Of a stretch of 64,000 bases of DNA, positions 7,000-58,258 are shown piece by piece. Positions within the stretch are counted from its first letter, which is position 1, and each line of letters begins with the position of its first letter. The notes under the pieces are model-generated. The model saw nothing but the letters and a program-made list of their open reading frames with translations, had not been told where the DNA came from and searched no databases. A program made the position numbers and the translations under genes. The stretch spans positions 358,286 through 422,285 of the forward strand of contig CBDFMY010000003.1 of NCBI GenBank assembly GCA_965249835.1, read 5' to 3'. Origin of the DNA: Candidatus Poriferihabitaceae bacterium. Its GTDB lineage: Bacteria > Pseudomonadota > Gammaproteobacteria > Arenicellales > Poriferihabitantaceae.

Positions 7000-7335
7000 C
7001 TCGGTAAGTTGAACCTACCGAGTAGTAAATCGCGGCTACGCCGCTGAGTTTTTTAACTGGATTGCCCGGAACAAGCCGGGCAATGACGAATGAAAGGTAA
7101 CGATGAATTGAAAAGACAAAGGCGCGTTGAGACGCCAAAGCACATTGAGAAAAAAGCCCGGTTTCACCGGGCTCATTAACTACGAATAAACATTGCGCGC
7201 CGTATTTTTGTTGTCAGGCAAGGCGCGCGAGGAGCGAGGGAGGGAGCATACATTAAGTATGTGACTGACCGAGTGACGAAGCGCAACACCGCATGGCGAC
7301 AAAAAGGCAAGCGCAATGACGAGTGATAGGTAACC
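7000..7335. repeat. mosaic intergenic repeat block 1
   Basis: Contains the hairpin ATTGCCCGG-aacaag-CCGGGCAAT, the module gaaaagacaaaggcgcgttgagacgccaaag, the terminator-like aaaaaagcccggtttcaccgggct, and a family-A unit (caggcaaggcgcgcgaggagcgagg...gcatacattaagtatgtga...ggcaagcgcaat). All recur elsewhere in the window. Confidence 0.85.
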
Positions 7336-7381
7336 TTGATTTATGTATAATGGCAAATGAGCGGCAAATGAGAAATCCATT

Positions 7382-8563
7382 ATGACATCAACCAAAAAAT
7401 TAAATCCGTTTCAGCCTGGCTTTGGGAAACAACCGCCTTATTTAGCCGGTCGGGAAAGCCAGAAAACCGAACTTAAAAAGGTTTTGGCCGACTTGGAAGG
7501 TGGACGGTCTCCCGCTGCTACAATGGTTATGTATGGGCCGCGGGGCATGGGAAAAACAGCCATGCTGAGTTGGTTTAAAGGGGAAGTTCAAAGTGTTAGC
7601 ACAAAGGATAAACCAATACGTACAGTTTCGACGGTTCCGTCTGATTTATCTTCTCCGGCGGAGTTGTGGGATTATTTGTTACCACAGAAAGTATGGCAGA
7701 AATTTATTCCAAAGGCGATTAGTGGAGGATTCGCCGGAGTATCTGGTTCTCTTACCTGGGGGTCGCGTAATCCGGCTAAACAAACATTGCAAAAGAATCT
7801 AATCAAAGAATGTAAAAAACGACCCACGATATTTTTGATGGATGAAGCGCACAGGATGGATGCGGGGTTGTGTGCGGATTTGTTAAACATTGATCAAATG
7901 ACGCGAAATAAATCTCCCTTTTTGTTAATCCTTACTGGCACCCCCGATCTTCGCGATATATTATCCACGGTGAACGCTACTTTTGCTGAGCGTTCCAACA
8001 AGATAGGCCTTGGTCGTTTGGATGATCAGTCAACTGCGGACGCTATTGTCAAACCGTTAGACGAACATGGCATGACTATAACCGATAAAGCCCTTGCGAA
8101 AGTTGTTGAAAGCAGTCAGCAATTTCCTTACTTTATACAACAATGGGGCAGTTTTCTTTGGGACGCTGCAACTAGCGCAAATTTGACATGTTTGACTGAT
8201 CAGCATGTTGATGCTGTAGAATCCTTTGTCAATAACAAAAAGATAGAGCTTTATCGTGATCGTCTGGTTGAACTGTCTAAGGATGAAGATGTGTTGTCTG
8301 CCGCGCAGGTAATTGCAAAAGAGTTTAAGGATAAGCATCAGCATAGAACGGCTTATATTATTTCGGTAATTAAAGAAGCGTTGCCTGATGCATCAGCAAC
8401 TAATTTAGATGCAATAGACCTATTAGGAAAATTAACGCGGCATAATTTAATTTGGTGTCCGCCTGGAGCTTTATATGAACCAGGTATCCCCAGTTTGATG
8501 ACATTTATATTGGACGAGCAACAAAAGAACGTTCGGACGGATGCATTAGAGACGCCAAAGTAA
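7382..8563 (+). CDS. AAA/STAND-type ATPase (Arch_ATPase / AAA_16-like)
   Basis: NPFQPGFGKQPPYLAGRESQ lead-in, Walker A YGPRGMGKTAM, Walker B IFLMDEAH. Visibly lower GC than the flanks. Confidence 0.7.
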   Translation: MTSTKKLNPFQPGFGKQPPYLAGRESQKTELKKVLADLEGGRSPAATMVMYGPRGMGKTAMLSWFKGEVQSVSTKDKPIRTVSTVPSDLSSPAELWDYLLPQKVWQKFIPKAISGGFAGVSGSLTWGSRNPAKQTLQKNLIKECKKRPTIFLMDEAHRMDAGLCADLLNIDQMTRNKSPFLLILTGTPDLRDILSTVNATFAERSNKIGLGRLDDQSTADAIVKPLDEHGMTITDKALAKVVESSQQFPYFIQQWGSFLWDAATSANLTCLTDQHVDAVESFVNNKKIELYRDRLVELSKDEDVLSAAQVIAKEFKDKHQHRTAYIISVIKEALPDASATNLDAIDLLGKLTRHNLIWCPPGALYEPGIPSLMTFILDEQQKNVRTDALETPK

Positions 8564-8625
8564 CCGAGCCGGCTAACGCCGCCGCTTTAGGATTCCCGCT
8601 TGCAGCAAGGATGACGAAATAAGAG
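8551..8625. repeat. mosaic repeat fragment
   Basis: gagacgccaaagtaaccgag...gccgccgctttaggattcccgc...gatgacgaaataagagtcgtgattgc. The same modules occur at 11225-11270 and 11640-11760. Confidence 0.75.
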
Positions 8626-8710
8626 TCGTGATTGCCCGGTGCCGCCAACTTGTTGCCCGGCTTGACCAACTAATCCAGTTAATTAAACCCAGCGTAGCCG
8701 CTGGCATTAT

Positions 8711-9100
8711 TCACTCAGGCTCAACCTCAAAAACCGGCAGGCCGCTCATCGCTCTGATGAACTTCAACAACTGTTTTCGCATGCGCTCAGGCAACCGACG
8801 AAAATGGTGTAGCAAGGCTTTTTCCTCACGGCTCATCTTGATTTTCGGCTGACTGCCCGGCGGCGGTGTGTTTTGCGTGCAGTGTCGCTGCGGGAAAACG
8901 GTGCCGGTGGCCAGCCACTGAGGGTCTTGCTGCAATACGCCGGCGAGCGCGAAAAAATACTCCAGTTTGATGTTTTTGCTCAATCCATTCTCCCACTGAT
9001 TGACCGCTGAAGCCGACACGCGCAGCGACTTAGCCAAATCCGCCTGCGACAAACCCGCCATTTTGCGGGATGTACGAATTCTCTCTGCCAGGGTAGTCAT
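8711..9100 (-). CDS. XRE-family helix-turn-helix transcriptional regulator
   Basis: LAERIRTSRKMAGLSQADLAKSLRVSASAVNQWENG is a canonical HTH_3 motif. Divergent from the adhesin gene across an AT-rich 256-bp spacer. Confidence 0.85.
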   Translation of the reverse strand: MTTLAERIRTSRKMAGLSQADLAKSLRVSASAVNQWENGLSKNIKLEYFFALAGVLQQDPQWLATGTVFPQRHCTQNTPPPGSQPKIKMSREEKALLHHFRRLPERMRKQLLKFIRAMSGLPVFEVEPE

Positions 9101-9356: not shown

Positions 9357-11114
9357 ATGAATATTAATAGACACAATCGTGCTCGGAATAATCTGGGCAA
9401 AGCATTGGCGGCTTTCTTCGGATGCGTCGCCCTCGCCGTCGGGCTGGCAGTGCCGGCTTACGGGCAGACCGACCCTGCAGTAACCAGTCCTGAAAATTGC
9501 GTCACCGGACTTACTGATGGTCTGGCGGCGGTAACGACAGGAAATACGGGGACTGGCGGCACACCCGGTGTGAGCATCACCCCTTCGGGAGATGACCAGT
9601 CTTCGCTCGCCGCCGGTTGTAACGCGGCCGCTCAAACCGATGGCAGTGTCGCCCTCGGCCATGGCGCAACGGTGGACAATGCTCCTCGTATAGTGGTTAT
9701 TGAGGCCGAGGCTCCGGTCGCCACTGTGCCTGGGGTATTTGATGTCACGTTTAAAGACGTACTTTATGAGGGTGTGACCGGCGTTATCACAATTGGGGAA
9801 GATTCTGAAGTTACGTTAAATAACGGTGATAAGCTTACGATTACTTTCGACCCTGCAGACCCGCCAGTCCAGATCGTTACTGTCACTGCGCCGGTACCTG
9901 GGCGTGCTGCGATAGCGGAGGCGGTCAAGGCGGGGGGGACAGAATCCACCGCTGTTGGCGCGGAATCATATGTTCAAGGTGAAAAAAGTGTTGCTATTGG
10001 AGCAGGTGCAAGCGTTGCCCTCGAAGTGCCCGCCGAGGGTCCGGCCGCCACTGTGCCTGGGGTATTTGATGTCACGTTTAAAGACGTACTTTATGAGGGT
10101 GTGACCGGCGTTATCACAATTGGGGCAGATTCTGAAGTTACGTTAAATAACGGTGATAAGCTTACGATTACTTTCGACCCTGCAGACCCGCCAGTCCAGA
10201 TCGTTACTGTCACCGCGCCGGTACCTGGGACTCCAGGGGTAATGGCATCAACTAACCCAGTAAACTTTGGTACAGCCATCGGTGCTGATTCATCCGTCAC
10301 AGGCGACGGTGGCGTCGCCATCGGTGTCGGTGCTGAAGCCGGGGAAAACCAAATCAGGATTGGAGCGGATCATGCAAACGTGCAGATAGGGGATTACAAC
10401 TTGGGCACTATTCGGGACGCTACTGCGACCAACGTCGTCGACATCGGCACCAACGCTGACGGCATTGCGACCAACGTCGCCGACATCGGCACCAACGCTG
10501 ACGGCATTGCGACCAACGTCGTCGACATCGGCACCAACGCTGACGGCATTGCGACCAACGTCGCCGACATCGGCACCAACGCTGACGGCATTGCGACCAA
10601 CGTCGTCGACATCGGCACCAACGCTGACGGCATTGCGACCAACGTCGCCGACATCGGCACCAACGCTGACGGCATTGCGACCAACGTCGTCGACATCGGC
10701 ACCAACGCTGACGGCATTGCGACCAACGTCGCCGACATCGGCACCAACGCTGACGGCATTGCGACCAACGTCGTCGACATCGGCACCAACGCTGACGGCA
10801 TTGCGACCAACGTCGCCGACATCGGCACCAACGCTGACGGCATTGCGACCAACGTCGCCGACATCGGCACCAACGCCGATGATATTGAGACCAACACCGC
10901 CGGCATCGCCACCGCAGTCGCTTTGGCCGGTCTGCCGGTTTTCAAAGGCGGCACCGGTGGCTGGGGAATTGCGCTCGGCTCTTTTGAGGGCGAAACCGCG
11001 GTTGCCATCGGAGCAAACTACAACCTCAATCAAGGCAGCAGCCTGATCAGGTTCGGCATCTCCACTTCCAGCGGCGGAACCAGCGGCACCATTGGTTTCG
11101 GAAAGGGGTTTTAG
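9357..11114 (+). CDS. trimeric autotransporter adhesin (YadA-like: signal peptide, repetitive passenger, stalk repeats, C-terminal beta-anchor)
   Basis: N-terminal signal ...LAVPAYGQ. There are 11 stalk-like 14-aa repeats (ATNV[VA]DIGTNADGI). The C-terminus IATAVALAGLP...GWGIALGSFEGETAVAIGANYN...GTIGFGKGF resembles a YadA anchor and ends in F. Confidence 0.8.
   Translation: MNINRHNRARNNLGKALAAFFGCVALAVGLAVPAYGQTDPAVTSPENCVTGLTDGLAAVTTGNTGTGGTPGVSITPSGDDQSSLAAGCNAAAQTDGSVALGHGATVDNAPRIVVIEAEAPVATVPGVFDVTFKDVLYEGVTGVITIGEDSEVTLNNGDKLTITFDPADPPVQIVTVTAPVPGRAAIAEAVKAGGTESTAVGAESYVQGEKSVAIGAGASVALEVPAEGPAATVPGVFDVTFKDVLYEGVTGVITIGADSEVTLNNGDKLTITFDPADPPVQIVTVTAPVPGTPGVMASTNPVNFGTAIGADSSVTGDGGVAIGVGAEAGENQIRIGADHANVQIGDYNLGTIRDATATNVVDIGTNADGIATNVADIGTNADGIATNVVDIGTNADGIATNVADIGTNADGIATNVVDIGTNADGIATNVADIGTNADGIATNVVDIGTNADGIATNVADIGTNADGIATNVVDIGTNADGIATNVADIGTNADGIATNVADIGTNADDIETNTAGIATAVALAGLPVFKGGTGGWGIALGSFEGETAVAIGANYNLNQGSSLIRFGISTSSGGTSGTIGFGKGF
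9720..10229 (+). repeat. two 183-bp near-identical direct repeats inside the adhesin gene (9720-9902 and 10047-10229)
   Basis: The copies are offset by 327 bp, so they stay in frame. I found only 2 differences (gaagat/gcagat, cactgcg/caccgcg). Each encodes ATVPGVFDVTFKDVLYEGVTGVITIG.DSEVTLNNGDKLTITFDPADPPVQIVTVTAPVPG. Confidence 0.9.
10425..10886 (+). repeat. 11 x 42-bp in-frame tandem repeat (alternating GTC/GCC variant gives an 84-bp super-unit)
   Basis: The unit gcgaccaacgtcg[t/c]cgacatcggcaccaacgctgacggcatt is repeated head to tail. The first 10 units are otherwise identical and the 11th is degenerate at its 3' end. Confidence 0.95.
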
Positions 11115-11137
11115 TCGGTTTTTGTTTCCTCTTGTGC

Positions 11138-11175
11138 CCGTGGCCCGGTAATCACACCGGGCCACGGTTACGTTT
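11138..11175 (+). terminator. stem-loop downstream of the adhesin gene (putative terminator)
   Basis: A 12-bp perfect stem ccgtggcccggt / accgggccacgg with a 6-nt loop, followed by ttacgttt (a weak U-tract). Confidence 0.5.
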
Positions 11176-11224
11176 GCGCGGATGCTTGTCACCGGTCAAC
11201 CCCTTTCGGTTGATCGAGCATCCG

Positions 11225-11800
11225 CGTTTTTCCTGTGGCGAGAATGATGAAATAAGAATCGTGATTGCTGTATAAGCTCGCTGTTTCGCTGACGGTTTTT
11301 CTCGGTTACTTTTGGCCTCGAAAAGACAGTCACACTTTGCGATTCACATTGTCTCCCCAACCCGTCATTCTCGCCGGCAGGCGGAAAAAATCGCCGGGAG
11401 CGATTTTTCGCGAGCGAAGCGAGCCCGAAGGGCGCGTATCAGGGATGATACGCGCAAATCCAGTCTGTTGTTCTCGCCAACGGTGAGAACCCAGAACTAA
11501 AAAACCATGAGAGTAACTAATACCGTCATAATCCAAACCATATCTCCAGACCGTAATTCCTTTTGAGAAGACAAAAGCACACGAAAAAAACTTGGTATGC
11601 CGAACTATTAGTATCATTACGCAAGCGTGACGCACCGGGCGGCTTGCGCCGCCGCTTTAGGATTCCCGCCTGCCGGCGAGAATGACGAATGAAGGGGCAA
11701 TAGTAAATTGAAAAGACAAAAGCGCGTTGAGAAGCCAAAGTAACCGAGGAAAAAAACCTGGTATGCCGAACTATTAGTATCATTACGCAAGCGTGACACT
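11225..11800. repeat. mosaic intergenic repeat block
   Basis: Contains dRS3-like hairpins (attctcgccggcaggcgg at 11367; attcccgcctgccggcgagaat at 11662-11683), the 24-nt hairpin gcgcgtatcagggatgatacgcgc (11432-11455), and two copies of ggtatgccgaactattagtatcattacgcaagcgtgac. Confidence 0.85.
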
Positions 11801-11829
11801 AAAACAGCGTTGCCGCTTTGATGCCGCCG

Positions 11830-13057: not shown

Positions 13058-14806
13058 TTACTGGGCGGCGTTTTCTTCGGCGCGCAAGGCGCGAACGGTT
13101 TGCAAGTATGCCTTGACCAGGGTGGATTCGTAAACCACTCCGAGCAGGCGGCCGGCTTCGTCGAGCACCGGTATGCTTTCGCCGACGAACTCTTCCATGG
13201 CTTCCATGGCATCCCACACCGACATCCCGGCATTGAAGCGCAGCGAATGGTGGTCGAGATAGTGTCGCGCTTTTTTAGGGGCACCGCCGTTGTTTGATGA
13301 CTCGTTTGCGACGATTTGGTTGAGCGTAATCATGCCAAGATATACCGACTGGTCGTCAACGATATACGCCTCGCTGCGATTGGCATCGATCAACGCCTGT
13401 TTCAGTCGGGACAAGTCGTGGTCGGGGTTGCCGCGCACGAAGTCGGTGGTGAGGTAATCGCCGATACCGGTGCGGGCAAGCATCACTTTGTCGCGGCCCA
13501 TGGATAAATCAAAACCGCGCATAGATAATTCACGGTCGAACAATGAACGCCCGAACAGGCGGTATGCCACCAAATTGGAGAACACCACACTGACCATCAC
13601 CGCCGTGGTCAACTCATAGTTGCGCGTCAGTTCGAAGACGATGAGGATGGTGGCGAGCGGCGCGCCGATTACCGGGCTGGTCACCGCCGCCATGCCGCAA
13701 ATCGCGTAAAACTCAATGCCGGCGTAGAAGTCGCTGTAAAGAAATTCCGCGCCATTACCGAGTAGTGCGCCGAATAAAATGCCAATCAGCAGCGCCGGGC
13801 TGAACACGCCGCCGGCGAAACCGAAGCCGATGCACAACGCGGTGGCGGCAATTTTTGCCACCAGAACAACACCGAGTTCGGCGCTGTTATATGCGTCCGG
13901 CGTGATGGCGAAGCGCAAAGTTTCATTGCCGACGCCGAGGATTTCCGGAATCCACTGCGCGGTGATGCCGACGCACAGCCCGGCGATGGCCGGCTTTATC
14001 CACACCGGTAACTTCAAGCAGTCGCTTGCCCGCCGCATGCGCAAAATCCCTTGCATATAAATCACCGCCACCAACGCACCGCCGGCGCCGATTACCACGA
14101 AAGCCAGAAACTCCGGCGCGAACACCGAGCGCGGTACGAATATTTCCAGCAGGGGCGGGCGGTGAAAAATTCGGTCGGCGATGAATAATCCGGTGGAGGA
14201 AGCCACGGTAATCGGCGCGAAGGCGCGCAACGAATAATGGCGCAATACCACTTCGTGGGCGAAGATGACGCCGGCGATGGGCGCGCTGAACACGGTCGAG
14301 ATGGCCGCCGCCACGCCGCAACCAATACCGAGACCGGGTTCGACTTTGCCGAGGCGGGAGACAATCGAGCCGAGCGTGGCACCGAGGTGAGTCAGCGGCC
14401 CATACTGACCCACCGATGCGCCGCTGCCGAGCCCGGCCAGCACCGCGCTGATAGTTACCAATCCGGTTTTGGCTGAGACGCTCTTGCCCGACTGTGCCGC
14501 TTCGATGACATCCGCCGGATTATGCGGACGCTGATCCGGAATCAGTAAAATCAATAGCCCGGCGATGAGTCCGCCGATAGCGGGCAGCACAAACAGAAAC
14601 CAAGACCAGTTGGACTGCGGCGGGATTCCCTGGCGACTTTGGGCGGTCACGAACAACGCGTGATTCAACCACTTGATGGCTTCGACAAAACCGATCGCGA
14701 GCAGCGACGTCACGGCGCCGACAACGATGCCGAAAACCAAAACTCGCACGATGCGGGACAACACATTCACGCCATGCGGACTCGCGGTGGGGGAAGATGA
14801 GGTCAT
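13058..14806 (-). CDS. ClC-family chloride channel with a C-terminal CBS-domain pair
   Basis: ATG at 14806 (MTSSSPT...), 7 nt after the ubiB stop. Multi-pass membrane core ([24 protein letters not shown]) followed by a CBS-like C-terminus. Confidence 0.8.
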
Positions 14807-14813
14807 GGGGTCG

Positions 14814-16463
14814 TTAGTGCCGACCAAACCATGACGACAACAACGCGCCGGCACCGGCCAGCAACAAAGCCGCGCTGAGCCACGATGCGGTGGCGGTCGC
14901 CGGCCCGCCGAGCAGGAGCAAAAGCCCGCCGAGGAACAAGGTGGCGGCGATGATGGCGCGCGCGGTTCGGCGTTGCGCATCGGCCATCTGATGCTGCAAA
15001 TCGGCCAGCAAGTCGGCATTTTGTCGGTCGCGAGTGCGCACGATCAACTCGTCGTTTTTCAGCCGGTGCAGGACTTGATGAACCAAGCCGGGCAACTGCG
15101 GCGCTAGGGTAAAAAGGTTCGGCAATTCCTGTTTCAAAATACGAATCGCCGCCTTTGGCCCGATTTGCTCGCTGGTCCATTTTTCGAGAAACGGCTTGGC
15201 GGTCGCCCACAGGTCGAGTTGCGGATACAACTGCCGCCCCAACCCTTCAATATTGAGTAGCGTTTTTTGCAACAGCACCAACTGCGGCTGCACCGGCATT
15301 TGAAAACGATGCGCCACGCGGAACAAGTCGATAAGAAAACCGCCGAATGAAATCTCGCTGATGGGGCGTGCGAAAATCGGCTCGCACACGGTGCGGATGG
15401 CGCCTTCGAATTCTTCCACTTTGGTTTCGGGCGGCACCCAGCCGGCGCGGACATGGGCATCGGCTACGCGATGATAATCGCGATCAAAAAACGCCAGCAA
15501 GTTCTCCGCCAGATATCGTTTGTCGGCGGCGCTCAAGGTGCCCATGATGCCGAAGTCCACCGCTCGATACTGGCCTTCCTTTGACACGAAGAGGTTGCCC
15601 GGATGCATGTCGGCGTGGAAGAAACCATCGCGAAATGCCTGGGTGAAAAAAATTTCCACGCCGTCATGCGCTAACTTTTTCATGTCAATGCCGGCGGCTT
15701 TTAGTCGCGACACATCGCGAATCGGAATGCCGTGAATGCGCTCCATCACCATGACATCGCGGCGCGTGTGCTCCCAATACACTTTCGGCACATAAATTAA
15801 ATCCGAGTCCGCAAAGTTCGCGCGCAACTGGCTGGCGTTGGCGGCTTCGCGCATCAAGTCAAGTTCGTAGTGGATGGTTTGGTCATAGTCGGAGACGATC
15901 TCGGCCGGCTTCAAGCGATGTGCGTCCGACCAATAACGCTCGGCCAGGTCGGCCAGGGCGCGTAGCAATTCAAGGTCGCGCTCAATGACTTTTTGCACAT
16001 CCGGGCGCAACACCTTGACCACCACTTCGGAGCCGTCCGCCAACTCGGCGTGATGCACTTGCGCGACCGATGCCGAGGCGGTGGCTTCGGCATCAAACGA
16101 TTTGAAATGATTCTCCAGCGAATCGCCGTAGGCGCGTTCAATGATCGCGCGCGCCTCGGCCGCCGGGAAAGGCGGCACTTCGTCTTGCAGGCGAACCAAC
16201 TCGCCGGAAATATCCGCCGGCAGAAGATCCGGGCGAGTGGAAAGCACCTGGCCGAATTTAACGAACACCGGCCCCAGTTCTTCCAGGGCTTCGCGCAAAC
16301 GCCGACCACGCGGGATGTCGTCTCGCCTGCGCCACCGACTCGGCACCGCCCGGAAAAGAAACGCAAATGGCCGGAACAGGTGCAGGGCACTGACAAACTC
16401 GTCGAGGTTGTGTTTGACCAGCACGCGGGCGATGCGCAACAGATGAAAAAAATTCTTGCCCAA
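14814..16463 (-). CDS. ubiB: ubiquinone biosynthesis regulatory kinase UbiB
   Basis: 549 aa. ALEELGPVFVKFGQVLSTRPDLLP, ASVAQVHHA and HADMHPGNLFV are ABC1/UbiB hallmarks. C-terminal TM segments are present. Confidence 0.92.
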   Translation of the reverse strand: MGKNFFHLLRIARVLVKHNLDEFVSALHLFRPFAFLFRAVPSRWRRRDDIPRGRRLREALEELGPVFVKFGQVLSTRPDLLPADISGELVRLQDEVPPFPAAEARAIIERAYGDSLENHFKSFDAEATASASVAQVHHAELADGSEVVVKVLRPDVQKVIERDLELLRALADLAERYWSDAHRLKPAEIVSDYDQTIHYELDLMREAANASQLRANFADSDLIYVPKVYWEHTRRDVMVMERIHGIPIRDVSRLKAAGIDMKKLAHDGVEIFFTQAFRDGFFHADMHPGNLFVSKEGQYRAVDFGIMGTLSAADKRYLAENLLAFFDRDYHRVADAHVRAGWVPPETKVEEFEGAIRTVCEPIFARPISEISFGGFLIDLFRVAHRFQMPVQPQLVLLQKTLLNIEGLGRQLYPQLDLWATAKPFLEKWTSEQIGPKAAIRILKQELPNLFTLAPQLPGLVHQVLHRLKNDELIVRTRDRQNADLLADLQHQMADAQRRTARAIIAATLFLGGLLLLLGGPATATASWLSAALLLAGAGALLSSWFGRH

Positions 16464-16481
16464 TGGAGTAATTCCGGCGGA

Positions 16482-17132
16482 TTAATTGCGCGAAGCGGGT
16501 TTGGTTTTTTGTTGCATGGTGTTCATCATGTCATCGAGTCGCGCGATTCGTTTGGTTAGCCGATCGACATCGGCGCGGGTTCGGTTGAGGGTTTTATCAA
16601 ACCGCGTCATGGCCGGGTTGGTAACCAGAATTCGTTTTTCTTCGCGCAGATAATCGGCCGTGTTCTCGCGGGTGAGGTCAAGAGATTTTTCGGCCCAGCC
16701 CGCCAGTCCGCGAGCCGCGTTTGCGAATTTGCGCGCCGGCGTGTCGCCGAAATAACGCGACAATAATTCTTCCCAATCCAAATCCAGTTGCCCCAGAATT
16801 TTTTGCAACGCTTGCGCGAGTTCAGCATCGCCGTCAATCGTCAAACGATTCAGTTTCAAATCGCCGCCACGACCAAACCGCGCAAACGCGGAGGCGGGTC
16901 CGCGTAGCGTAACATCCGGCGGCGCCGTGCTCTCGTCAACGTTGCGACAAAATTCCATGCCATGTTCGTTCGGCAGCAGATATAGTTTGATTGCCGGCGC
17001 GGTAACTTCCAGACAAAAAACCTTGCCGCGCAGTTGCGTCAGTTTTTGTTTGCCGTCGGGGTCAAGATCGATAAGCGCACTCGTCGCGGCGTTTAATAGG
17101 TCAAGCACGAGGTCGGCATCGGGGCGCAACAT
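16482..17132 (-). CDS. ubiJ: ubiquinone biosynthesis accessory factor UbiJ (SCP2 domain)
   Basis: 216 aa between ubiE and ubiB, the conserved position. The N-terminal half is SCP2-like. Confidence 0.75.
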   Translation of the reverse strand: MLRPDADLVLDLLNAATSALIDLDPDGKQKLTQLRGKVFCLEVTAPAIKLYLLPNEHGMEFCRNVDESTAPPDVTLRGPASAFARFGRGGDLKLNRLTIDGDAELAQALQKILGQLDLDWEELLSRYFGDTPARKFANAARGLAGWAEKSLDLTRENTADYLREEKRILVTNPAMTRFDKTLNRTRADVDRLTKRIARLDDMMNTMQQKTKPASRN

Positions 17133-17150
17133 AACTTTAATACTTCCCCT

Positions 17151-17930
17151 TTAATACTTGAGGCCAATGTGCAAAGCAACGATGCCAGCGCTGAGATTGT
17201 GTATGCGCACATCTTCAAATCCGGCGCGCATCATCATTGCCTTCAAGGTTTGCTGGTCGGGGTGTCGACGGATGGATTCGACCAGATAGCGGTAACTTGC
17301 CTCATCGCCGGCGACCAGTTTGCCCAGCGTTGGAATGACCGCGAACGAGTAGCAGTCATACATTTTTTCCAGTAGCGGGAGAATCGGTTTGGAAAACTCC
17401 AGCACCAGCAGTCGTCCACCGGGGCGCAACACGCGAAACATGGAAACGAGCGCGTCTTGTTTGCGCGTAACATTGCGTAACCCGAAGGCGACCGACACGC
17501 AATGAAAGTGATCGTCTTTGAAACAAAGTTTTTCGGCATCGGTTAAAACGTAAGTGATGTTGCCGACCAGGCCGGCGTCGATCAGGTTGCCCTTGCCTTC
17601 GGCAAGCATCGCCGCATTGATGTCGGACAATACCAGCGTGCCGTCGGCGCCGACCTGGCGAGCAAACCGCCGCGCCATATCGCCGCTGCCGCCGGCGACA
17701 TCGAGCACCGTGTCGCCGCGTCGAAGTGCGCTTTGCGATGCCGCAAAACGCTTCCACAATCGGTGCGCGCCAAACGAAATCAAGTCATTCATCAGATCAT
17801 AATTGCTCGCCACCGAACGAAAAACCTCGCCCACCATCCCGGATTTTGCGGAAGGGTCCACCGTCTGATAGCCAAAATCGGTGGCAGAATCGGCGGCTTG
17901 CTCCTGCTGGTGTTTGCTGCTTGCTGTCAT
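17151..17930 (-). CDS. ubiE: demethylmenaquinone/ubiquinone C-methyltransferase UbiE
   Basis: [37 protein letters not shown] and [15 protein letters not shown]. Confidence 0.93.
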
Positions 17931-27545: not shown

Positions 27546-27569
27546 AAATACTTACTGCTGCACGTCATG

Positions 27570-27597
27570 GGGGACCGGCAACGGTCCCCTTTTTTTT
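27570..27597 (+). terminator. rho-independent terminator after comEA
   Basis: ggggaccg-gcaa-cggtcccc followed by T8. Confidence 0.85.
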
Positions 27598-27764
27598 ATG
27601 CAAGCGGTGTAGTGACGGCCATCAATGCCGTAAAACCGAAAGCGTTATTGTATAGGCACATTTATTATTGGCCGGGCAATCCAGTGGATTATGTCGTCCG
27701 GCGTAGCCGGACTCATTTGCGGCGAAGCCGCCAGCTTTGTGTCCGACTGTGTCGGGCTCTTCAT

Positions 27765-32612: not shown

Positions 32613-32639
32613 GCGCGTGACGAATTGTTCGGCACATAA

Positions 32640-36414: not shown

Positions 36415-37464
36415 ATGATCGATCTTCGCAGCGACACCGTCACTGCTCCCTGCGACCACATGCGCCAGGCGATGGCAACCGCCGAAGTGGGCGATGATGT
36501 CTACGACGAAGACCCGACGGTCAAACGACTCGAGCAAAAACTGGCGGCGATGGTGAGCCACGAAGCCGGGCTGTTTTTCCCGTCCGGAACCCAGAGCAAC
36601 CTGGTCGCATTGCTCAGCCACTGCCAACGCGGCGATGAATATATAGTCGCGCAAAACGCGCACACCTATCGCTTTGAAGCCGGCGGCGGCGCGGTGCTCG
36701 GCAGCATCCAACCGCAACCGCTGGAGGGCGAGCGCGACGGCACCCTTGACCTCAATAAAGTCGCGGCGACCATCAAGGCGGATGATTTTCATTTTGCAAA
36801 AACGCGATTGTTGGTGTTGGAGAACACCACTGGCGGCAGGGCGCTTGAGTTGGAATACCTGCGACGCGCCGCTGCTTTGGCGCGGCAAAACCACCTCGCC
36901 TTCCACCTGGACGGTGCGCGAGTATTTAATGCCGCCATCGCGCTCGGCGTGGAGGTGGCGGAGATTACCAATCACTTCGATTCGGTCTCCATTTGTTTGT
37001 CCAAAGGACTCGGCGCGCCGGTCGGCTCGGTGTTGTGTGCCAGCGCAGAGTTCATCCACCGTGCGCGAAGATGGCGCAAAATGGTGGGCGGCGGAATGCG
37101 CCAAGTGGGCATGCTCGCCGCCGCCGGAATATACGCGCTTGAGCACAACATCACGCGCCTGCAACAAGACCACGACCGGGCGCAACAACTTGCCGATGAG
37201 TTGATGCGCATCAACGCGCTGGCAGTGTCCGGCGACAAGGCACACACCAACATGGTGTTTATCTCGCTACGCAACGGCCATGGCAACGGCGACGACAACG
37301 ACTCGGGAAATACTTTTGACGCGTTGCGCCCATTTGCCAAAAGCCGCGGGTTATTGCTCGGCGAGCGCGCCGGCGCCGACACGCTTCGATTGGTAACGCA
37401 TAAACACATCAGCGAGCAGGACATCACCTCAGCAGCGCAGATTATCGCTGAGTTTTTTTGCTGA
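36415..37464 (+). CDS. ltaE: low-specificity L-threonine aldolase
   Basis: ATG at 36415 gives MIDLRSDTVTAP...VGDDVYDEDPT. The PLP-lysine context SICLSKGLGAPVG is present. Confidence 0.88.
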   Translation: MIDLRSDTVTAPCDHMRQAMATAEVGDDVYDEDPTVKRLEQKLAAMVSHEAGLFFPSGTQSNLVALLSHCQRGDEYIVAQNAHTYRFEAGGGAVLGSIQPQPLEGERDGTLDLNKVAATIKADDFHFAKTRLLVLENTTGGRALELEYLRRAAALARQNHLAFHLDGARVFNAAIALGVEVAEITNHFDSVSICLSKGLGAPVGSVLCASAEFIHRARRWRKMVGGGMRQVGMLAAAGIYALEHNITRLQQDHDRAQQLADELMRINALAVSGDKAHTNMVFISLRNGHGNGDDNDSGNTFDALRPFAKSRGLLLGERAGADTLRLVTHKHISEQDITSAAQIIAEFFC

Positions 37465-37489
37465 CATAAATGTGGCAAGCCGCGACATT

Positions 37490-38512
37490 TTAATACGCCA
37501 CCGGCAAAATCCTTCCGGTAACGCGTCCCAGAGAGTTGACGATAGTCGGTTGAAAGTGCGGTTGTAGTTTTTTCTCGGTGGCGGCATCCAGCGCATCCAG
37601 TTTTTTCAACAATGCACCGAGTGCGACTTCGGCGGCGCGGCTGGCACCGTCGTCGATTTTCAGCGCGAAGCCAACACCGAGATGCGCAATGATGCCGCCG
37701 TATACGCCTTCGGCACCGGTTTTGATCAACACGCGGCCGGCGGATTCCCGTATCACATCGGTGCAACACCGCCCGGTGCCGGCGAGCATGTGCGGGTGGG
37801 CGCGCAACGCATCAAGGATTTGCGTCATTGCTGCCGCTCGTGGTTTGGAATGTTTCACGCCGATTTTGTCGGTGTCGGCATAGCAAGCGAAAGCCCGCGC
37901 CACAAGACTAAGCGGCATGCAAATCGCCGGTAGCCCGCAACCGTCTCGTTCCCACGGCAACGCAAACACATCCAGCTCAATCAACTCGGATAAAGTTTGC
38001 ATCCACGCCCGCTGGGTCGGGTGATGATACGCGCTGTAACCGTGCGTGTCGGCGTTGATAAACTTCGCCAAAGTCAACATTCCCGCGTGCTTGCCGGAGC
38101 AGTTGTGATGCACGCGGGTCGGCTGCTCGCCGCCGGCGATGAGTTCGTGGGCGGTGCGCTGCAGTAATGGTAATTGCGCACCACATTCGAGATCGTCGGC
38201 GTTCAAGTCAAGGCGATGCAGCCAGCGTAGCACCGCATCGGTGTGGAATTGCTCGGCGTTGTGGGAAGCGCAAGCCAACGCAATTTCCGCCGCATCCAAA
38301 CCAAACCGCTTCGCGGCACCGCTTTCCACCAGCGGAATCGCCTGGAAAATTTTCAACGCCGACCTCGGATACACCGACTGCGAAACATTGCCCACGGATA
38401 ACACCGTCCGCCGGTTGGTATCCACCACCGCCACGCTGCCGCGGTGGCTCGATTCCACCTGCTCGCCGCGATGCACCTCGACCAGCACCGGGTTGTTATT
38501 TGTTTTCGTCAT
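37490..38512 (-). CDS. asparaginase-II family protein (PF06089-like)
   Basis: VLVEVHRGEQVESSHRGSVAVVD, CSGKHAGML and GAEGV. Start taken at ATG 38512. Confidence 0.75.
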   Translation of the reverse strand: MTKTNNNPVLVEVHRGEQVESSHRGSVAVVDTNRRTVLSVGNVSQSVYPRSALKIFQAIPLVESGAAKRFGLDAAEIALACASHNAEQFHTDAVLRWLHRLDLNADDLECGAQLPLLQRTAHELIAGGEQPTRVHHNCSGKHAGMLTLAKFINADTHGYSAYHHPTQRAWMQTLSELIELDVFALPWERDGCGLPAICMPLSLVARAFACYADTDKIGVKHSKPRAAAMTQILDALRAHPHMLAGTGRCCTDVIRESAGRVLIKTGAEGVYGGIIAHLGVGFALKIDDGASRAAEVALGALLKKLDALDAATEKKLQPHFQPTIVNSLGRVTGRILPVAY

Positions 38513-38589
38513 CGTGTTTGCGCTTGTCTTTTCATCGCCATGGTTTATTACGCCGTATAGTGTTGCGCGCAATGTTTGTCTGGATTATA

Positions 38590-39010
38590 AGGAGTTATCT
38601 ACGCCGCGTCTGGTCCCCGCCTGCCGCGAGGATGACGGTCTGGAGATGTGGTTTGGATTATGACGGTATTAGTTACTCTCATCGTTTTTTAGTTCTGGGT
38701 TCTCGCCTTTGGCGAGAACAACAGACTGGATTCCCGCCTGCCGGCGAGAATGACGAATGAAAGGGCAATAGTGAATTGAAAAGACAAAGGCGCGTTGAGA
38801 AGCCAAAAGTAACCGAGAAAAACTGCCAGCGAAATAGTGAACGTATACACCGCCTGCGGCATGAGGGTTCATCGGCCAACGATGCCCTATTTTGGCGACG
38901 CGGTAAAACCCTCTTATTTGGTAGCCAATATGCTGGATTTGCATGGCATCTCCTCTTGGGTTGAGGAGTGCCATATGTATCTGAGCTTATGCAGTATGTG
39001 GTGGCACATA
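38590..39010. repeat. mosaic intergenic repeat block plus a solo ~75-bp IS-end-like repeat
   Basis: attcccgcctgccggcgagaat (38730-38751), gaaaagacaaaggcgcgttgagaagccaaaag, and 38925-39000, which is ~95% identical to the reverse complement of 59680-59755. Confidence 0.85.
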
Positions 39011-39078
39011 CAAATATAAGTAGAGGAGTATAAAACAAGGTAGACTCGCGCATTGATTTTTCGCCGCAGATAGCACCC

Positions 39079-41207: not shown

Positions 41208-41329
41208 GTTTTCGACAGACATCATCCCACGGAACGGGATGATCACTTCATGCGGCGCAACCAAGGACAGCGCGGGTGCCATTTCAATTTTGCGTAAAAC
41301 GCGGAGCGGATTCGTGCGTCCGGGAATGC

Positions 41330-41418
41330 GTGCGCGAGAATGACGGCAGGGAGAGCGATTTTTCGCAAGCGAAGCGAGCCCGAAGGGCGCGTATCAGGGA
41401 TGATACGCGCAAATCCAG
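41330..41418. repeat. mosaic repeat fragment containing the 24-nt hairpin module
   Basis: gcgagaatgacgg...cgatttttcgcaagcgaagcgagcccgaagggcgcgtatcagggatgatacgcgcaaatccag, close to 11395-11465. Confidence 0.85.
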
Positions 41419-50219: not shown

Positions 50220-50299
50220 AATGAACCGGGCATGTTACCGAAACCCTGCGGATTATAGACAATCTCGACGCCTATTTATCGCAACTCCGCCGCCGAAAT

Positions 50300-50700
50300 A
50301 AGGAGTTCGGCTACGCCAGAGCAACGTCGTTTTAGTGTCACGCTTCGCGTGACACTTATTTACCATTGTCTTCTCAAAAGGACTCATCGCCGCCCGATTT
50401 ACCGTTGTCCTCCCAGTCCGTCATTGCGCGCCGTATTTTGCGCGTATCATCCCTGATACGCGCCCTTCGGGCTCGCTTCGCTCGCGCCCAGTCGATTCAT
50501 GGCGCTCCCGGCGATTTTTTCGTTGTCAGGCAAGGCGCGCGAGGAGCGAGGAAGGGAGCATACATTAAGTATGTGAACGATCGAGTGACGATGCGCAACA
50601 CTACACTGCACTGCACAGCACAACGACCACAACGACCACAACGACCATGGCGACGAAAAGGCAAGCGCAATGGGGCAAGCGAAACGGCTATACTGCGCAC
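50300..50700. repeat. mosaic intergenic repeat block
   Basis: Contains the palindrome gtgtcacgcttcgcgtgacac, the 24-nt hairpin (50440-50463, opposite orientation), and a family-A unit with an internal 3 x cacaacgac microrepeat. Confidence 0.85.
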
Positions 50701-50725
50701 TTGTCTATTCTATTTCTTTTTCACC

Positions 50726-51400
50726 ATGACCACCGACCCACACACTTCCATTGAGGCCACTTTTGATGCGCCGGAGATCGATTGGTATTTTGATTTCCTC
50801 TCGCCGTTTGCGTATTTGCAACACGAATTATTGTTGCGTAATCAACCGGATTTGCGGCGAAATTATCGGCCGGTGTTACTGGCCGGGCTGTTGAAACATT
50901 GGGGCAGCAGGGGCCCGGCGGAAATTCCGGCGAAGCGCGTTGTTGCCTATCACTACTGCCAGTGGCTGGCGGACAAGCACGGCATCCCGATGAAATTTCC
51001 ACCGGCGCATCCGTTCAATCCGCTATCAACGTTGCGTCTGGCGGTCGCGCATACTTGCGCGCAAGACAGCGTGACGCAAATTTTTCGCGCATGGTATGCA
51101 GACGGCACCGACCTGAATCACGCGCCGAACTGGAATGCGCTTTGTCAGCGACTGGAAATCGCCGACGGCGATCAACTCATCGACCAGCAATGGGTGAAGG
51201 ATCAACTTCGCGCCAACACCGAACAAGCCGCGGCGCGCGATGTGTTCGGCGTGCCGACGCTGGTAATCGGCGACCGACAATTCTGGGGCTTGGACATGAC
51301 CGACATGGCGCTTGAATATTTGGAAAACCCGGCCCGCTTTGCGGGCGGCGAATACCGCAAACTCGCCGCGTTGCCTGTGGGTCAGGCGCGGAAAATATAA
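50726..51400 (+). CDS. 2-hydroxychromene-2-carboxylate isomerase / DsbA-like thioredoxin-fold protein
   Basis: ATG at 50726. IDWYFDFLSPFAY, and FGVPTLVIGDRQFWG near the C-terminus. The ORF extension upstream lies in repeat DNA. Confidence 0.75.
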   Translation: MTTDPHTSIEATFDAPEIDWYFDFLSPFAYLQHELLLRNQPDLRRNYRPVLLAGLLKHWGSRGPAEIPAKRVVAYHYCQWLADKHGIPMKFPPAHPFNPLSTLRLAVAHTCAQDSVTQIFRAWYADGTDLNHAPNWNALCQRLEIADGDQLIDQQWVKDQLRANTEQAAARDVFGVPTLVIGDRQFWGLDMTDMALEYLENPARFAGGEYRKLAALPVGQARKI

Positions 51401-51415
51401 TCGCGTCGGCGCCGC

Positions 51416-55959: not shown

Positions 55960-56380
55960 AACTAAAACGGCGCAACAAAAATCCCGAGCAACACCTCGGA
56001 CAACACCCGAATCCGGGCAAATGTGCGAAGTCGTGCTGGCCGCACTGGCAGACGCCAAGGGTGAGCGGGTCAAGTTGCTCGATGTGCGCAAACTCACCGA
56101 CATCACCGATTACATGATCGTCGTCACCGGCACTTCGGAGCGTCATGTCAAAACGCTTGCCGAGCGTGTGCTGTCGATGATGCGCGAAGCCGGTTGGAAA
56201 CATCTGGGAATAGAGGGCGAGCAAGACCGCGACTGGCTGCTGGTGGATTTTGTCGATGTGGTGGTTCACATCATGCGCGCGCACACCCGCGAGCATTACG
56301 ATTTGGAAAGCCTGTGGGATGAAACTTTTGGCGAACTGTTGCAACCCCGGGAACATTCCGAAACCGCCGCGCAACGCTGA
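55949..56380 (+). CDS. rsfS: ribosome silencing factor RsfS
   Basis: DYMIVVTGTSERHV, DWLLVDFVDVVVHIM and YDLESLW. The start is ambiguous (GTG 55934, ATG 55949 or ATG 56021). Confidence 0.85.
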   Translation: MADKTKTAQQKSRATPRTTPESGQMCEVVLAALADAKGERVKLLDVRKLTDITDYMIVVTGTSERHVKTLAERVLSMMREAGWKHLGIEGEQDRDWLLVDFVDVVVHIMRAHTREHYDLESLWDETFGELLQPREHSETAAQR

Positions 56381-56393
56381 TTCAAAGCCGCCC

Positions 56394-56873
56394 ATGCTCA
56401 CCATCCACCTCATCGTCGTCGGCGAGAAAATGCCGAACTGGGTGCGCCAGGGCTATCACGAATACGCCAAACGAATTCACGGAAGGTGCGCGCTGCATCT
56501 CATTGAAGTGGCGGCCGAGCGGCGCGGCAAACATGCCAACGCCGCCGACCTCGAAAAAATCGCCGCGCGCGAAGCGGCACGAATCGAACGGGCGATACCG
56601 AAAGGAAGCCGCGTCATCGCCCTCGATCGCAACGGCGAGTCGCACTCAACGCGGCAAGTGTCGCGCCGCATGGAAGCGTGGATGCGAGACGGCGAACAAG
56701 TGTCGCTGCTGGTGGGTGGCGCGGAAGGTTTGTCCGGGCAACTGTTGCGGGATGCCGATGAAACCTGGTCGCTGTCGGCCCTGACTTTCGCTCACCCGCT
56801 GGTGCGCGTGATTGTCGCCGAGCAGATGTATCGCTGCTATTCGCTACTCGAAAATCTGCCGTATCATCGCTAG
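56394..56873 (+). CDS. rlmH: 23S rRNA (pseudouridine1915-N3)-methyltransferase
   Basis: ATG at 56394 (MLTIHLIVVGEKMP). LLVGGAEGL and TFAHPLVRVIVAEQMYR. Confidence 0.9.
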   Translation: MLTIHLIVVGEKMPNWVRQGYHEYAKRIHGRCALHLIEVAAERRGKHANAADLEKIAAREAARIERAIPKGSRVIALDRNGESHSTRQVSRRMEAWMRDGEQVSLLVGGAEGLSGQLLRDADETWSLSALTFAHPLVRVIVAEQMYRCYSLLENLPYHR

Positions 56874-56884
56874 GCATCGTCCGC

Positions 56885-57502
56885 ATGCTCGTCCTCGCCT
56901 CCACATCTCCCAGGCGTCGGGAAATGCTGGCGCAACTCGGTGTCACATTCCGCATGGAGAGTGCCGATGTCGACGAGCGTCGCTTGCGCGGTGAGTCGCC
57001 CGACGACATGACCGTGCGGCTGGCTCTGCTCAAAGCGCAAACCGTGTTTGAGCGTGTAGTCACCGAGCGCGCCGCCGGCAAACGCGGCAAGACCGATGAA
57101 CCCGCAACCGTGCTCGGCGGCGACACCGTGGTGGCCATCGGCGATGAAGTTTTCGGCAAACCGAACGGCCGCGAGCATGCACTGGCAATGTTGCAACGTC
57201 TGTCGGGGAATACCCACACGGTTTTTTCCGCGGTGGCACTGGTTGCCGAAGGATGCCGGTGCGCCGACCCGCGAACGCTCTATCGCCTGAGCGAAACCGA
57301 AGTTACTTTCGGTCGCCTTGAGCGGCGGCAACTGGAACGCTATTGCGACAGCACCGAGCCGTTTGACAAAGCCGGCGCCTACGCAATACAAGGTGCCGGC
57401 GGCGCGTTTGTCAAACACATCCAGGGCAGTTACAGCGGCGTGGTCGGGCTACCGCTGTGGGAAACCGCGCAACTGCTGCGCGAACTGAATCATCATGAGT
57501 GA
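56885..57502 (+). CDS. maf: Maf-family nucleoside triphosphate pyrophosphatase
   Basis: LVLASTSPRRREML, DTVV and KAGAYAIQG. Confidence 0.9.
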   Translation: MLVLASTSPRRREMLAQLGVTFRMESADVDERRLRGESPDDMTVRLALLKAQTVFERVVTERAAGKRGKTDEPATVLGGDTVVAIGDEVFGKPNGREHALAMLQRLSGNTHTVFSAVALVAEGCRCADPRTLYRLSETEVTFGRLERRQLERYCDSTEPFDKAGAYAIQGAGGAFVKHIQGSYSGVVGLPLWETAQLLRELNHHE

Positions 57503-57992
57503 ACAAATGCTGATTAACGAAATTCGCAAATGCACCACGAGAATTTCGATGGGATTCGCGAATAATTTTCGGCGTGTGAGCGTGGCGATGAGATTTACGA
57601 AGAGTTTTCGGCGCGTGCATCCGGGCAATCCCTCAACCCGAGTCGGGTTGCTGTCCGTTGGATTGCTACTCATCGGTTTGCTACTGGCCGGCGCGCCAGC
57701 CAGCGGCGGCGACATCCATGATTACATTGTGACGCGCGCCGAGTGGCCGCAACACGCCAACGGACAAAACATATCGGCACTTCCGGTGGTCAACGAAACA
57801 TTGCGGAGTTTCGAAGAAAACGGCAAGGTAACCATCGTCATCCGCTATCCCGGCGGCGACCCCGGCCACCAATGGGCAAACGAACTCTATGGCTGGCTGG
57901 TCAGCCTCGGCATACCAACCCGCTACATTGAATTGCAACCCGGCTCCGGCGCAACCGACCGACTGGTGGTAAGTGTGATTGATCGAGGGTGA
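57495..57992 (+). CDS. hypothetical protein with one TM/signal segment
   Basis: The ATG overlaps the maf stop (ATGAGTGA). Hydrophobic segment VGLLSVGLLLIGLLLAGAPA. No family recognised. Confidence 0.4.
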   Translation: MSEQMLINEIRKCTTRISMGFANNFRRVSVAMRFTKSFRRVHPGNPSTRVGLLSVGLLLIGLLLAGAPASGGDIHDYIVTRAEWPQHANGQNISALPVVNETLRSFEENGKVTIVIRYPGGDPGHQWANELYGWLVSLGIPTRYIELQPGSGATDRLVVSVIDRG

Positions 57993-57994
57993 TG

Positions 57995-58258
57995 AATCGT
58001 GCTTGTCTTTTCGTCGCCATGGTCGTTTTGGTCGTTGTGCTGTGTAGTGTAGTGTTGCGCATCGTCACTCGGTCGGTCACATACTTAATGTATGCTCCCT
58101 CCCTCACTCCTTGCGCGCCTTGCCTGACAACGAAAATACTGCGCGCAATGTTTTTTATAATCTCGGAAGGCGATGATTTCTTTTGAGACGCCAAAAGTAA
58201 CCGAGAAAAAAGCCCGGTTGCGTCGGACTCTTGATGTCGTCACGCGAAGCGCGACTCA
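57995..58258. repeat. mosaic intergenic repeat block (family-A unit in reverse orientation plus terminator-like module)
   Basis: ...cacatacttaatgtatgctccctccctcactccttgcgcgccttgcctgacaacg... is the reverse complement of family A. Also gagacgccaaaagtaaccgagaaaaaagcccgg. Confidence 0.85.

Follow-up and report, generated by a model that had tools for sequence, protein, structure and literature searches.

The window analyzed here, a 64,000-nucleotide stretch of a 1,911,894-bp contig (CBDFMY010000003.1) of Candidatus Poriferihabitaceae bacterium, contains nine blocks in which small, non-coding repeats that form hairpins, from several families, are clustered. These repeats are present in hundreds of copies over the chromosome. 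We think that these blocks probably arose from non-autonomous hairpin elements of the repetitive extragenic palindrome (REP) and REP doublet (REPIN), miniature inverted-repeat transposable element (MITE) or palindrome-associated transposable element (PATE) type, which inserted into each other and were then reshuffled by recombination. The outcome would be mosaics like the bacterial interspersed mosaic elements (BIMEs) of E. coli and the Neisseria intergenic mosaic elements (NIMEs). Counted in this proposal are the CGTC-REP, module b, the A-unit, elements g and h, terminator-like hairpins, and the solo ends of IS481-like and IS4-like insertion sequences (IS). The elements belong to a known kind (CGTC REP, BIME/NIME-like mosaic, MITE and IS ends), in a lineage with no earlier description of them, and are not a new system. 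The host, near Candidatus Spongiihabitans, is a gammaproteobacterium of the Arenicellales that lives in symbiosis with sponges.

An initial annotation of the window, made from its letters alone, had described eight mosaic blocks assembled from six modules (a to f), with a NIME-like architecture. Both descriptions stand: direct reading found all eight blocks and all six modules in place, and self-BLAST of the window agreed. A ninth block (27546-27764) had been overlooked, and the nine sum to 3934 bp, or 6.1% of the window. Every repeated segment pair in the self-BLAST falls in the blocks, save the internal tandem repeat of an adhesin gene and one 75-nt IS end (38920-38994, similar to 59679-59752). 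Five blocks are in convergent and three in divergent intergenic regions, and the ninth is 3' of a ComEA-like gene. The neighbors are housekeeping genes (pteridine reductase/nhaB, asparaginase/proS, cspA/moeA, trhO/DsbA-like and M18 aminopeptidase). The GC content of the window is 55%, and along the blocks it forms a wave, with REP hairpins of 62-68% GC alternating with units of 66-100 nt at 39-45% GC. For example, block 4 reads REP-b(66)-REP-spacer(101)-REP-b2(67) and block 5 reads REP-h(90)-REP-b(67), with lengths in nt.

Module (a) is a member of the CGTC-tagged REP super-family. These REPs are defined by an unpaired CGTC head (also TGTC or CCTC), an 8-9-bp stem opening with A·T pairs, a 4-5-nt loop and a CCA tail (PMC3733652). 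In a census of the window and related loci, many copies of module (a) have the core CGTC-ATTCTCGCC-GGCA-GGCGGGAAT-CCAG. The stem (ATTCTCGCC/GGCGGGAAT) is 9 bp and starts with ATT, and the loop is 4 nt (GGCA or GGTA, also GCA). The head is CGTC, TGTC or CATC, immediately 5' of the stem in every canonical copy, and 29 census hairpins have the tail CCA(G). Stem variants are compensatory (ATCCTCGCC/GGCGGGGAT and ATTTTCGCT/AGCGAAAAT), and a T·G wobble is conserved in the stem, on the CGTC strand. All REP copies in the window are intergenic. Head, stem and loop, tail, and high extragenic copy number all agree with the published definition. CGTCATT occurs 10 times in the 3.9 kb of blocks versus 7 times in the remaining 60 kb. 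Some REPs form inverted pairs within about 130 bp (32902(+)/33060(-), with a 101-nt spacer; in related locus L001, 415/528, 621/734 and 7583/7708), and many other copies are single. In relatives, REPs are also nested in the loops of other REPs.

The "dRS3-like" label that the initial annotation gave to module (a) is right at the super-family level, since Neisseria dRS3 is the CGTC-1 family of CGTC-tagged REPs (Di Nocera, De Gregorio & Rocco 2013, PMC3733652). At the family level the label is wrong, because the strict dRS3 consensus ATTCCCN8GGGAAT has no match in the window, even at 1 mismatch. The local hairpin is 22 nt, with ATTCTC. One relative (L023) has the 8+4 geometry of dRS3, CGTC-ATTCTCGC-GAAA-GCGGGAAT-CCAG. 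The Neisseria DNA uptake sequence (DUS), in any dialect, has no match in the window either, and the lack of both rules out a Neisseria origin of this DNA. With CGTC REPs at large, module (a) has in common the unpaired head, the stem starting with A·T, the 4-nt loop, the CCA(G) tail, the high copy number, the extragenic location, inverted pairs, and clustering with other repeat families; in Neisseria and Wolbachia, CGTC REPs are likewise clustered and interleaved with other repeats (PMC3733652). It differs from the four published families in having a 9-bp stem with a conserved T·G wobble together with a 4-nt loop, whereas among the published families a 9-bp stem goes with a 5-nt loop, and an 8-bp stem with a loop of 4 nt in family 1 and of 5 nt in family 2. 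It also differs in its gammaproteobacterial sponge-symbiont host, and in that long-loop and nested variants are common here.

The 126-nt A-unit (module d) is present in exactly seven copies in the window (7192-7321, 32661-32786, 33164-33288, 33289-33413, 33414-33539, 50419-50674, and 57995-58152 on the minus strand), and its matches to related loci have BLAST E values down to 1e-54. The best-preserved copies start with CGTCATTGCGCGCC and finish with GCGCAATGACG, and the unit is bounded by CGTCATTGCGC...GCGCAATGACG. The terminal inverted repeats are (CGTC)ATTGCGC...GCGCAAT(GACG), with no consistent duplication beside 10 copies. A covariance model made from 10 copies gave 19 matches, a divergent subfamily among them. 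In the alignment, which was fitted to the model and so favors the pairing figure, 95% of cells are paired, and double changes occur at 16 of the 36 pairs. None of 500 shuffles reached the observed values, and slid controls gave 22-48% pairing. Folding of the modelled strand is 15-20 kcal/mol more favorable than that of its complement. In the middle stem, two Watson-Crick pairs alternate with GA/GA internal loops (tandem G·A mismatches), 3-4 in a row, as a ladder. This G·A-ladder hairpin is the sole feature that we could not place in any described family.

The A-unit resembles the MITE-like ERIC (enterobacterial repetitive intergenic consensus)/IRU (intergenic repeat unit) and Correia-type elements, which are imperfect palindromes of about 125-155 nt. 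It too is an imperfect palindrome with short terminal inverted repeats, intergenic in either orientation, in about 50-300 copies, sometimes internally deleted (L021 11201-11284) and sometimes abutting gene starts. Unlike those elements, it has no TA or other target duplication that we could see, carries the CGTC-REP head at its termini, forms tandem arrays, and combines the tandem G·A ladder with a lack of any Rfam similarity (whole window, no match at the gathering level; block 4, none at E<=1). Copies in which just the tip of the hairpin is missing (model positions about 41-78) occur at L021 11201-11284 and at 18362-18434 of L026 (reverse complement), a recurrent internal deletion reminiscent of the short Correia forms. 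The 3' arms of two window copies, A6 (50591-50645) and A7 (58020-58060), contain a (CACAACGAC)n/(CACTG)n microsatellite of differing length, and block 6 of a relative has a similar tract.

Several shorter modules accompany these two. Module b, an AT-richer unit of about 66 nt, is joined to the REP head in about half of the REP copies; it contains a single weak match to a promoter consensus. Element g (72 nt, three hairpins) is found inside a REP at a precise position (GGCGG-g-AATCCAG, 11385-11456), and the same REP without g is seen at high depth in Logan contigs as the joint 11384 to 11457. It is also inside an A-unit (50440-50520), with an equal arrangement in L001. Module h is a 90-nt unit, module e is a perfect hairpin of 9-10 bp (50328-50356), and module c, in three copies, reads as an intrinsic terminator on the opposite strand. 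The small hairpin CGGCGTAGCCG is enriched, with 11 matches versus 2.2 expected, a number that 0 of 100 shuffles reached.

Two further modules are the ends of insertion sequences. The 26-nt IR module is the terminal repeat of an IS481-like element, present in the window as solo ends that abut REPs (11269-11295, 32810-32835 and 38823-38848). An intact full element is in the 5' stem of a CGTC-REP in a relative (L021 6860-7925), with a 324-aa transposase (6868-7842) whose best profile is IS481 at 193 bits, under the curated cut-off of 224. Its flanks, CGTCATTCT...ATTCTCGCC, contain a 5-bp duplication, ATTCT, and its inverted repeats start with TGTAT. The solo ends meet REPs at one junction (GGCGGGC/GTATA), a pattern that suggests REP-targeted insertion. 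The idea that module b is an internally deleted IS481-like element was rejected, as b has no relation to the sequence found inside the IS end. The 75-nt module i is the end of an IS4-like element, because its second copy (59679-59752) adjoins a frameshifted IS4-like transposase gene. The parts of the nine blocks, in order along the window, and this second copy are as follows.

Block 1, 6993-7381: divergent intergenic.
Block 1, 7031-7046: small hairpin.
Block 1, 7057-7088, minus strand: REPa2, a CGTC-REP variant, CGTC-ATTGCCCGGC-TTGT-TCCGGGCAAT-CCAG.
Block 1, 7089-7149: module b; 7150-7192, module c (terminator-like, minus strand); 7192-7321, A-unit A1.
Block 2, 8549-8710: convergent intergenic.
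Block 2, 8549-8568: module b tail; 8570-8588, GC hairpin; 8588-8616, degenerate CGTC-REP (minus strand); 8690-8700, CAGCGTAGCCG hairpin.
Block 3, 11115-11829: convergent intergenic.
Block 3, 11269-11295: solo IS481-like terminal repeat; 11296-11320, module b tail.
Block 3, 11363-11384 and 11457-11464: REPa, interrupted by the 72-nt element g at 11385-11456.
Block 3, 11462-11550: module h, which includes the hairpin GTTCTCGCC-AAA-GGCGAGAAC and a CCAG tail.
Block 3, 11594-11631 and 11760-11797: module f, two copies.
Block 3, 11658-11687, minus strand: REPa; 11688-11753, module b.
Block 9, 27546-27764: 3' of the ComEA-like gene and its terminator.
Block 9, 27662-27684: half REPa2 (GGCCGGGCAATCCAG), then three small GC hairpins, one of which is GTCCGGCGTAGCCGGAC.
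Block 4, 32613-33539: between the convergent pteridine reductase and nhaB genes.
Block 4, left, 32661-32786: A2; 32787-32809, REPa cut short by an IS end; 32810-32835, solo IS481-like repeat; 32836-32901, module b (minus strand).
Block 4, middle, 32902-32931: REPa (plus strand); 32932-33032, hairpin spacer; 33034-33060, REPa (minus strand).
Block 4, right, 33061-33127: module b2; 33122-33164, module c; 33164-33539, A3, A4 and A5 in tandem.
Block 5, 38510-39078: divergent intergenic, asparaginase/proS.
Block 5, left, 38510-38585: A-unit remnant (minus strand); 38610-38637, REP variant (minus strand); 38638-38727, module h.
Block 5, right, 38726-38755: REPa (minus strand); 38756-38822, module b; 38823-38848, solo IS481-like repeat; 38849-38860, REP fragment.
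Block 5, 38920-38994: module i, IS4-like end.
Block 6, 41209-41418: convergent intergenic, cspA/moeA.
Block 6, 41320-41347: degenerate REP; 41353-41410, element g (minus strand), then the REP tail AAATCCAG.
Block 7, 50220-50726: divergent intergenic, trhO/DsbA-like gene.
Block 7, left, 50296-50325: small hairpin; 50328-50356, hairpin e; 50359-50410, module b2 (minus strand).
Block 7, 50419-50674: A6, starting with CGTCATTGCGCGCC; element g nested at 50440-50520; (CACAACGAC)n microsatellite at 50591-50645.
Block 8, 57993-58258: convergent intergenic.
Block 8, 57995-58152, minus strand: A7; 58183-58210, module b tail; 58204-58232, c-like terminator hairpin; 58236-58258, e-like hairpin.
Second copy of module i, 59679-59752, minus strand: adjoins the frameshifted IS4-like transposase gene at 59765-60456.

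The modules are not confined to the window. A 23-nt A-unit pattern, searched against 185,579 species genomes, matched two sites only, both in one metagenome-assembled genome of Candidatus Spongiihabitans (Gammaproteobacteria, Arenicellales), and both of these 8-kb loci are crowded with the window's own modules. Loci of three further related assemblies also have them. The nearest homologues of NhaB, acyl-CoA dehydrogenase and TrhO are on complete contigs of 1.9-2.8 Mb (ENA metagenome assemblies) and in "Arenicellales bacterium". A metagenome scan with a 20-nt A-unit pattern gave 13 loci that share just the 20-mer, and we rejected these as chance matches. Copy number was estimated from Logan contigs of two public runs placed on the blocks, with even gene depth (about 1300-2400). 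The estimates, which may be inflated because the metagenomes contain multiple strains, are as follows, relative to single copy.

REPa hairpin: about 600-1560x.
Module b: 400-780x.
Element g: 380-460x.
Module h: 250-310x.
Module i: 110-180x.
Module f: about 90x.
IR piece: about 57x.
A-unit: 55-330x.

By direct counting there are about 8 REPs per 64 kb in the window and about 20 per 64 kb in its closest relative, and direct counts agree with 10^2-10^3 REPs per genome. The high depth and the direct counts therefore refute the reading that the repeats are an assembly artefact or are peculiar to this window, which the initial annotation had raised as an outcome that would count against it. In run X5 (third host label, organism C), one A-unit contig has 1 difference in 113 nt at 33295-33407, and the flanking genes are matched at few places and with lower identity. 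Two readings are possible: better conservation of the A-unit than of the genes, or its exchange between lineages.

Between genomes with 98% identity, no other part of the chromosome changes as fast as the blocks, and they far outpace the adjoining genes. The closest relative is a circular contig of 2,796,376 bp, about 98% identical in the flanking genes. Four of the five comparable blocks differ between the two, by 118 to about 880 nt of whole modules. In block 4, the difference is the insertion or deletion of a 118-nt [h+REP] unit that has REPs at its bounds. Block 5 has 438 nt in the window and 136 nt in the relative, block 6 has 66 nt versus 945 nt, and block 7 has 241 nt versus 708 nt; block 8 is conserved. 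The right end of block 7 also carries, at one and the same site, a different A-unit subfamily in each genome. Between ubiB and clc, the relative has in addition 1.8 kb of modules plus the IS; the window has nothing at that place. More distant relatives have short, repeat-free spacers at the same junctions (in L019, 59 bp at nhaB/LysR and 104 bp at proS/asparaginase). Co-resident strains of one sample differ in having or lacking one A-unit immediately 5' of the asparaginase start, a difference accounted for by unequal crossover between the 3' ends of A-units.

The blocks coincide with sites of gene loss, gain and reordering. At the position of block 4, between nhaB and the reductase gene, four relatives have a 6-kb LysR-ADH-phosphonate-ABC segment that is not in the window. 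At blocks 2 and 3, a repeat-flanked 7-kb creatinase-creatininase-ABC-LysR segment replaces the adhesin and HTH genes in the closest relative, which has its adhesin gene on the other side of the AAA-ATPase gene. The proposal that the blocks flank variable segments thus holds in part: gene content and order do differ at the blocks, but some large insertions or deletions have no modules at their ends, namely a 3.3-kb insert with a 108-bp duplication and a 1.16-kb two-gene difference, both relative to the closest relative. The nhaB-creatinase-ltaE-asparaginase segment, which the initial annotation had named as one of the variable ones, does not vary as such: most relatives examined share its synteny, L016-L019, L023 and L026 have it complete, and the variation is in the content at the block positions. 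Translocation of the DsbA gene between blocks 6 and 7 was considered and rejected, as the DsbA gene beside moeA in L023 has no homologue in the window.

How might such mosaics be built? We postulate that an enzyme acting in trans copies the elements in the form of single-stranded hairpins. The best candidate would be a REP-associated tyrosine (HUH) transposase (RAYT), as has been proposed for the dRS3 REPINs of Neisseria, where Bertels et al. (bioRxiv 10.1101/2021.07.10.451892) report that REPINs formed by the dRS3 sequence ATTCCCGCGCAGGCGGGAATC are associated with a Group 2 RAYT. The strand asymmetry of the modelled A-unit fold, and the REP wobble, fit action on one single strand. The elements land by preference in or beside existing hairpins. 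Element g is found in a REP and in an A-unit at precise junctions, REPs are found in the loops of REPs, and an IS481-like element is found in a REP stem with its 5-bp duplication; clusters grow into mosaics in this way. Recombination between copies then reshuffles the mosaics, with the changes in unit number, the 118-nt [h+REP] difference, and the block replacements as its visible products. The repeats may plausibly also affect neighboring genes, as terminators, as hairpins in 5' or 3' untranslated regions, and as donors of start and stop codons.

Several observations weigh against this explanation. In about 270 kb of DNA examined for enzymes (the window and related loci), tblastn, and Pfam on the open reading frames (ORFs) of the densest loci and strain-specific inserts, found neither a RAYT nor any other Y1 transposase; tblastn with E. 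coli RayT gave noise only. Di Nocera et al. (PMC3733652) linked no transposase to the CGTC REPs. Neither the REP nor the A-unit showed a target-site duplication or a fixed target. Most of the polymorphisms can be explained by recombination between existing copies, without new transposition, and the recurrent identical junctions (REP/IR and g/AAATCCAG) could be composites that are copied as units rather than repeated site-specific insertions. The possible inflation of the depth-based copy numbers counts on the same side.

REPIN-RAYT systems and the BIMEs of E. coli share many features with the repeats described here, including short palindromes in inverted pairs, mosaic clusters, strand-asymmetric hairpins and palindrome-targeting IS. 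For example, IS1397, of the IS3 family, inserts in REP loops. There are also differences: the head here is CGTC and not GTAG, and a 66-nt unit is attached to about half of the REPs. The likeness to NIMEs (Bentley et al. 2007, PMC1797815) is in the arrays of GC-rich inverted repeats with lower-GC units of 50-150 nt, the GC wave, the variation of array length and content between strains, and the location of arrays beside variable genes that include an adhesin. Unlike NIMEs, the blocks have neither the dRS3 consensus nor DUS, competence is not known, the lineage differs at the phylum level, far fewer spacer families are seen (about ten), and a tandem 126-nt hairpin, a nested 72-nt element and IS ends are present as well.

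The same likeness raises the question of whether the arrays are kept for a NIME-type function, in promoting exchange of flanking genes such as the adhesin gene or in serving as integration sites, a role proposed for NIMEs by Bentley 2007 (PMC1797815). The REP is in the dRS3 super-family, hairpins and spacers alternate in a GC wave, the adhesin and nearby cassettes change position and content exactly at the blocks between close relatives, and the [h+REP] unit has REPs at its bounds. We nevertheless consider this function unlikely. There is no IS110/Piv-type recombinase or filamentous prophage in the window or related loci, about 270 kb in all, and the modules have no match in phage, plasmid and viral collections; the phage or IS110/Piv link suggested by the initial annotation thus found no support in the window or in those collections. 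The window has no uptake sequence. The nhaB/reductase junction varies in relatives that are free of repeats, and therefore variability there needs no repeats. Homologous recombination between any high-copy repeats would yield an equal pattern.

The A-unit, and perhaps the REPs, could instead be functional RNAs, acting as stabilizers of 3' ends, terminators or attenuators, or as a repeated family of small RNAs, with their spread being secondary. Many REPs have been argued to act as RNA (PMC3733652). The A-unit covariation, the strand-specific folding, the G·U pairs and the tandem G·A motifs would suit such a role, as would the resemblance of module c and several other hairpins to intrinsic terminators and the A-units that abut or overlap gene starts. 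We doubt this explanation, however. A-units point either way with respect to the nearest genes, occupy divergent as well as convergent spacers, and also form tandem arrays; at one site they are present, absent or swapped for another subfamily between genomes that are 98% identical. Rfam contains no match, and transposition through single-stranded DNA predicts the strand asymmetry equally well. Last, that the blocks are mere IS debris or an assembly artefact is very improbable and already largely refuted: the IR (26 nt) and i (75 nt) modules are indeed ends of IS481-like and IS4-like elements, and the window has an IS graveyard at 59.7-63.5 kb, but the fragments-of-one-IS description holds only for the minor IR module, among the rarest at about 57x versus 400-1500x for REPa and b. 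None of REPa, b, g, h, c, f and the A-unit resembles the IS elements that could be compared, and the same modules recur in independent assemblies and runs from three host labels.

These repeat mosaics have several implications. Architecture of the dRS3/NIME type, long held to be peculiar to Neisseria, is also present in an uncultured gammaproteobacterial sponge symbiont, where it makes up several percent of a small genome. The blocks coincide with cassette swaps, including that of the adhesin, and with gene loss, and therefore matter for the shrinkage and diversification of symbiont genomes and for their assembly and binning. The lengths of 1.91 Mb versus 2.80 Mb at about 98% identity in the genes compared, together with about 15 kb of the relative that is missing from the window within the 57 kb compared, suggest recent genome reduction in the window's lineage. 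Several complete close relatives have different repeat loads, and they are a good case for finding what mobilizes CGTC-type REPs. A more speculative proposal, which we regard as improbable, is that this lineage is a natural system for identifying the mobilizing enzyme of CGTC-type (dRS3-like) REPs, that the CGTC-headed A-unit, with its covarying stem and G·A ladder, is a new class of structured single-strand element (DNA substrate or RNA), and that its turnover contributes to the loss of genes from a symbiont genome that is shrinking (1.9 Mb versus 2.8 Mb in the 98%-identical relative).

Some of the ORF calls inside the blocks are spurious, and some real genes begin or finish within a repeat. 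The likely asparaginase ATG (38542, minus strand) is within the A-unit remnant at 38510-38585, in its conserved CATGGCG motif. In strain L016 (5958-6094), the terminal CAATG of a full A-unit provides the asparaginase ATG, and that unit is missing in L017; the repeat therefore rewrites the 5' end of the asparaginase gene. The ORF at 7382-8563 (AAA_22 ATPase) ends in a module b tail, with its stop codon (8561-8563) inside the repeat (GAGACGCCAAAGTAACCGAG).

Other features are outside the blocks. The 3.3-kb insert, at 13832-17319 of the 98%-identical relative (L026, reverse complement) and also in contigs of runs X1 and X2, has four ORFs, is in the ltaE/asparaginase interval, and is bounded by the 3' end of ltaE, duplicated directly over 108 bp (window 37368-37475). 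It resembles a small integrated element and has no relation to the repeat modules. The window has no tRNA gene. The adhesin gene (9357-11114) encodes a YadA-type trimeric autotransporter, in which a 21/42-bp tandem repeat recurs in frame about 20 times (10273-11028). A transposase fragment (6255-6674) adjoins an apparently truncated porin-like ORF starting at 6992 (minus strand). The IS graveyard (59679-63500) contains, after the frameshifted IS4-like transposase gene (59765-60456), IS30-like and IS481-like fragments (61055-61984) and an intact ISNCY transposase gene (62126-63304).

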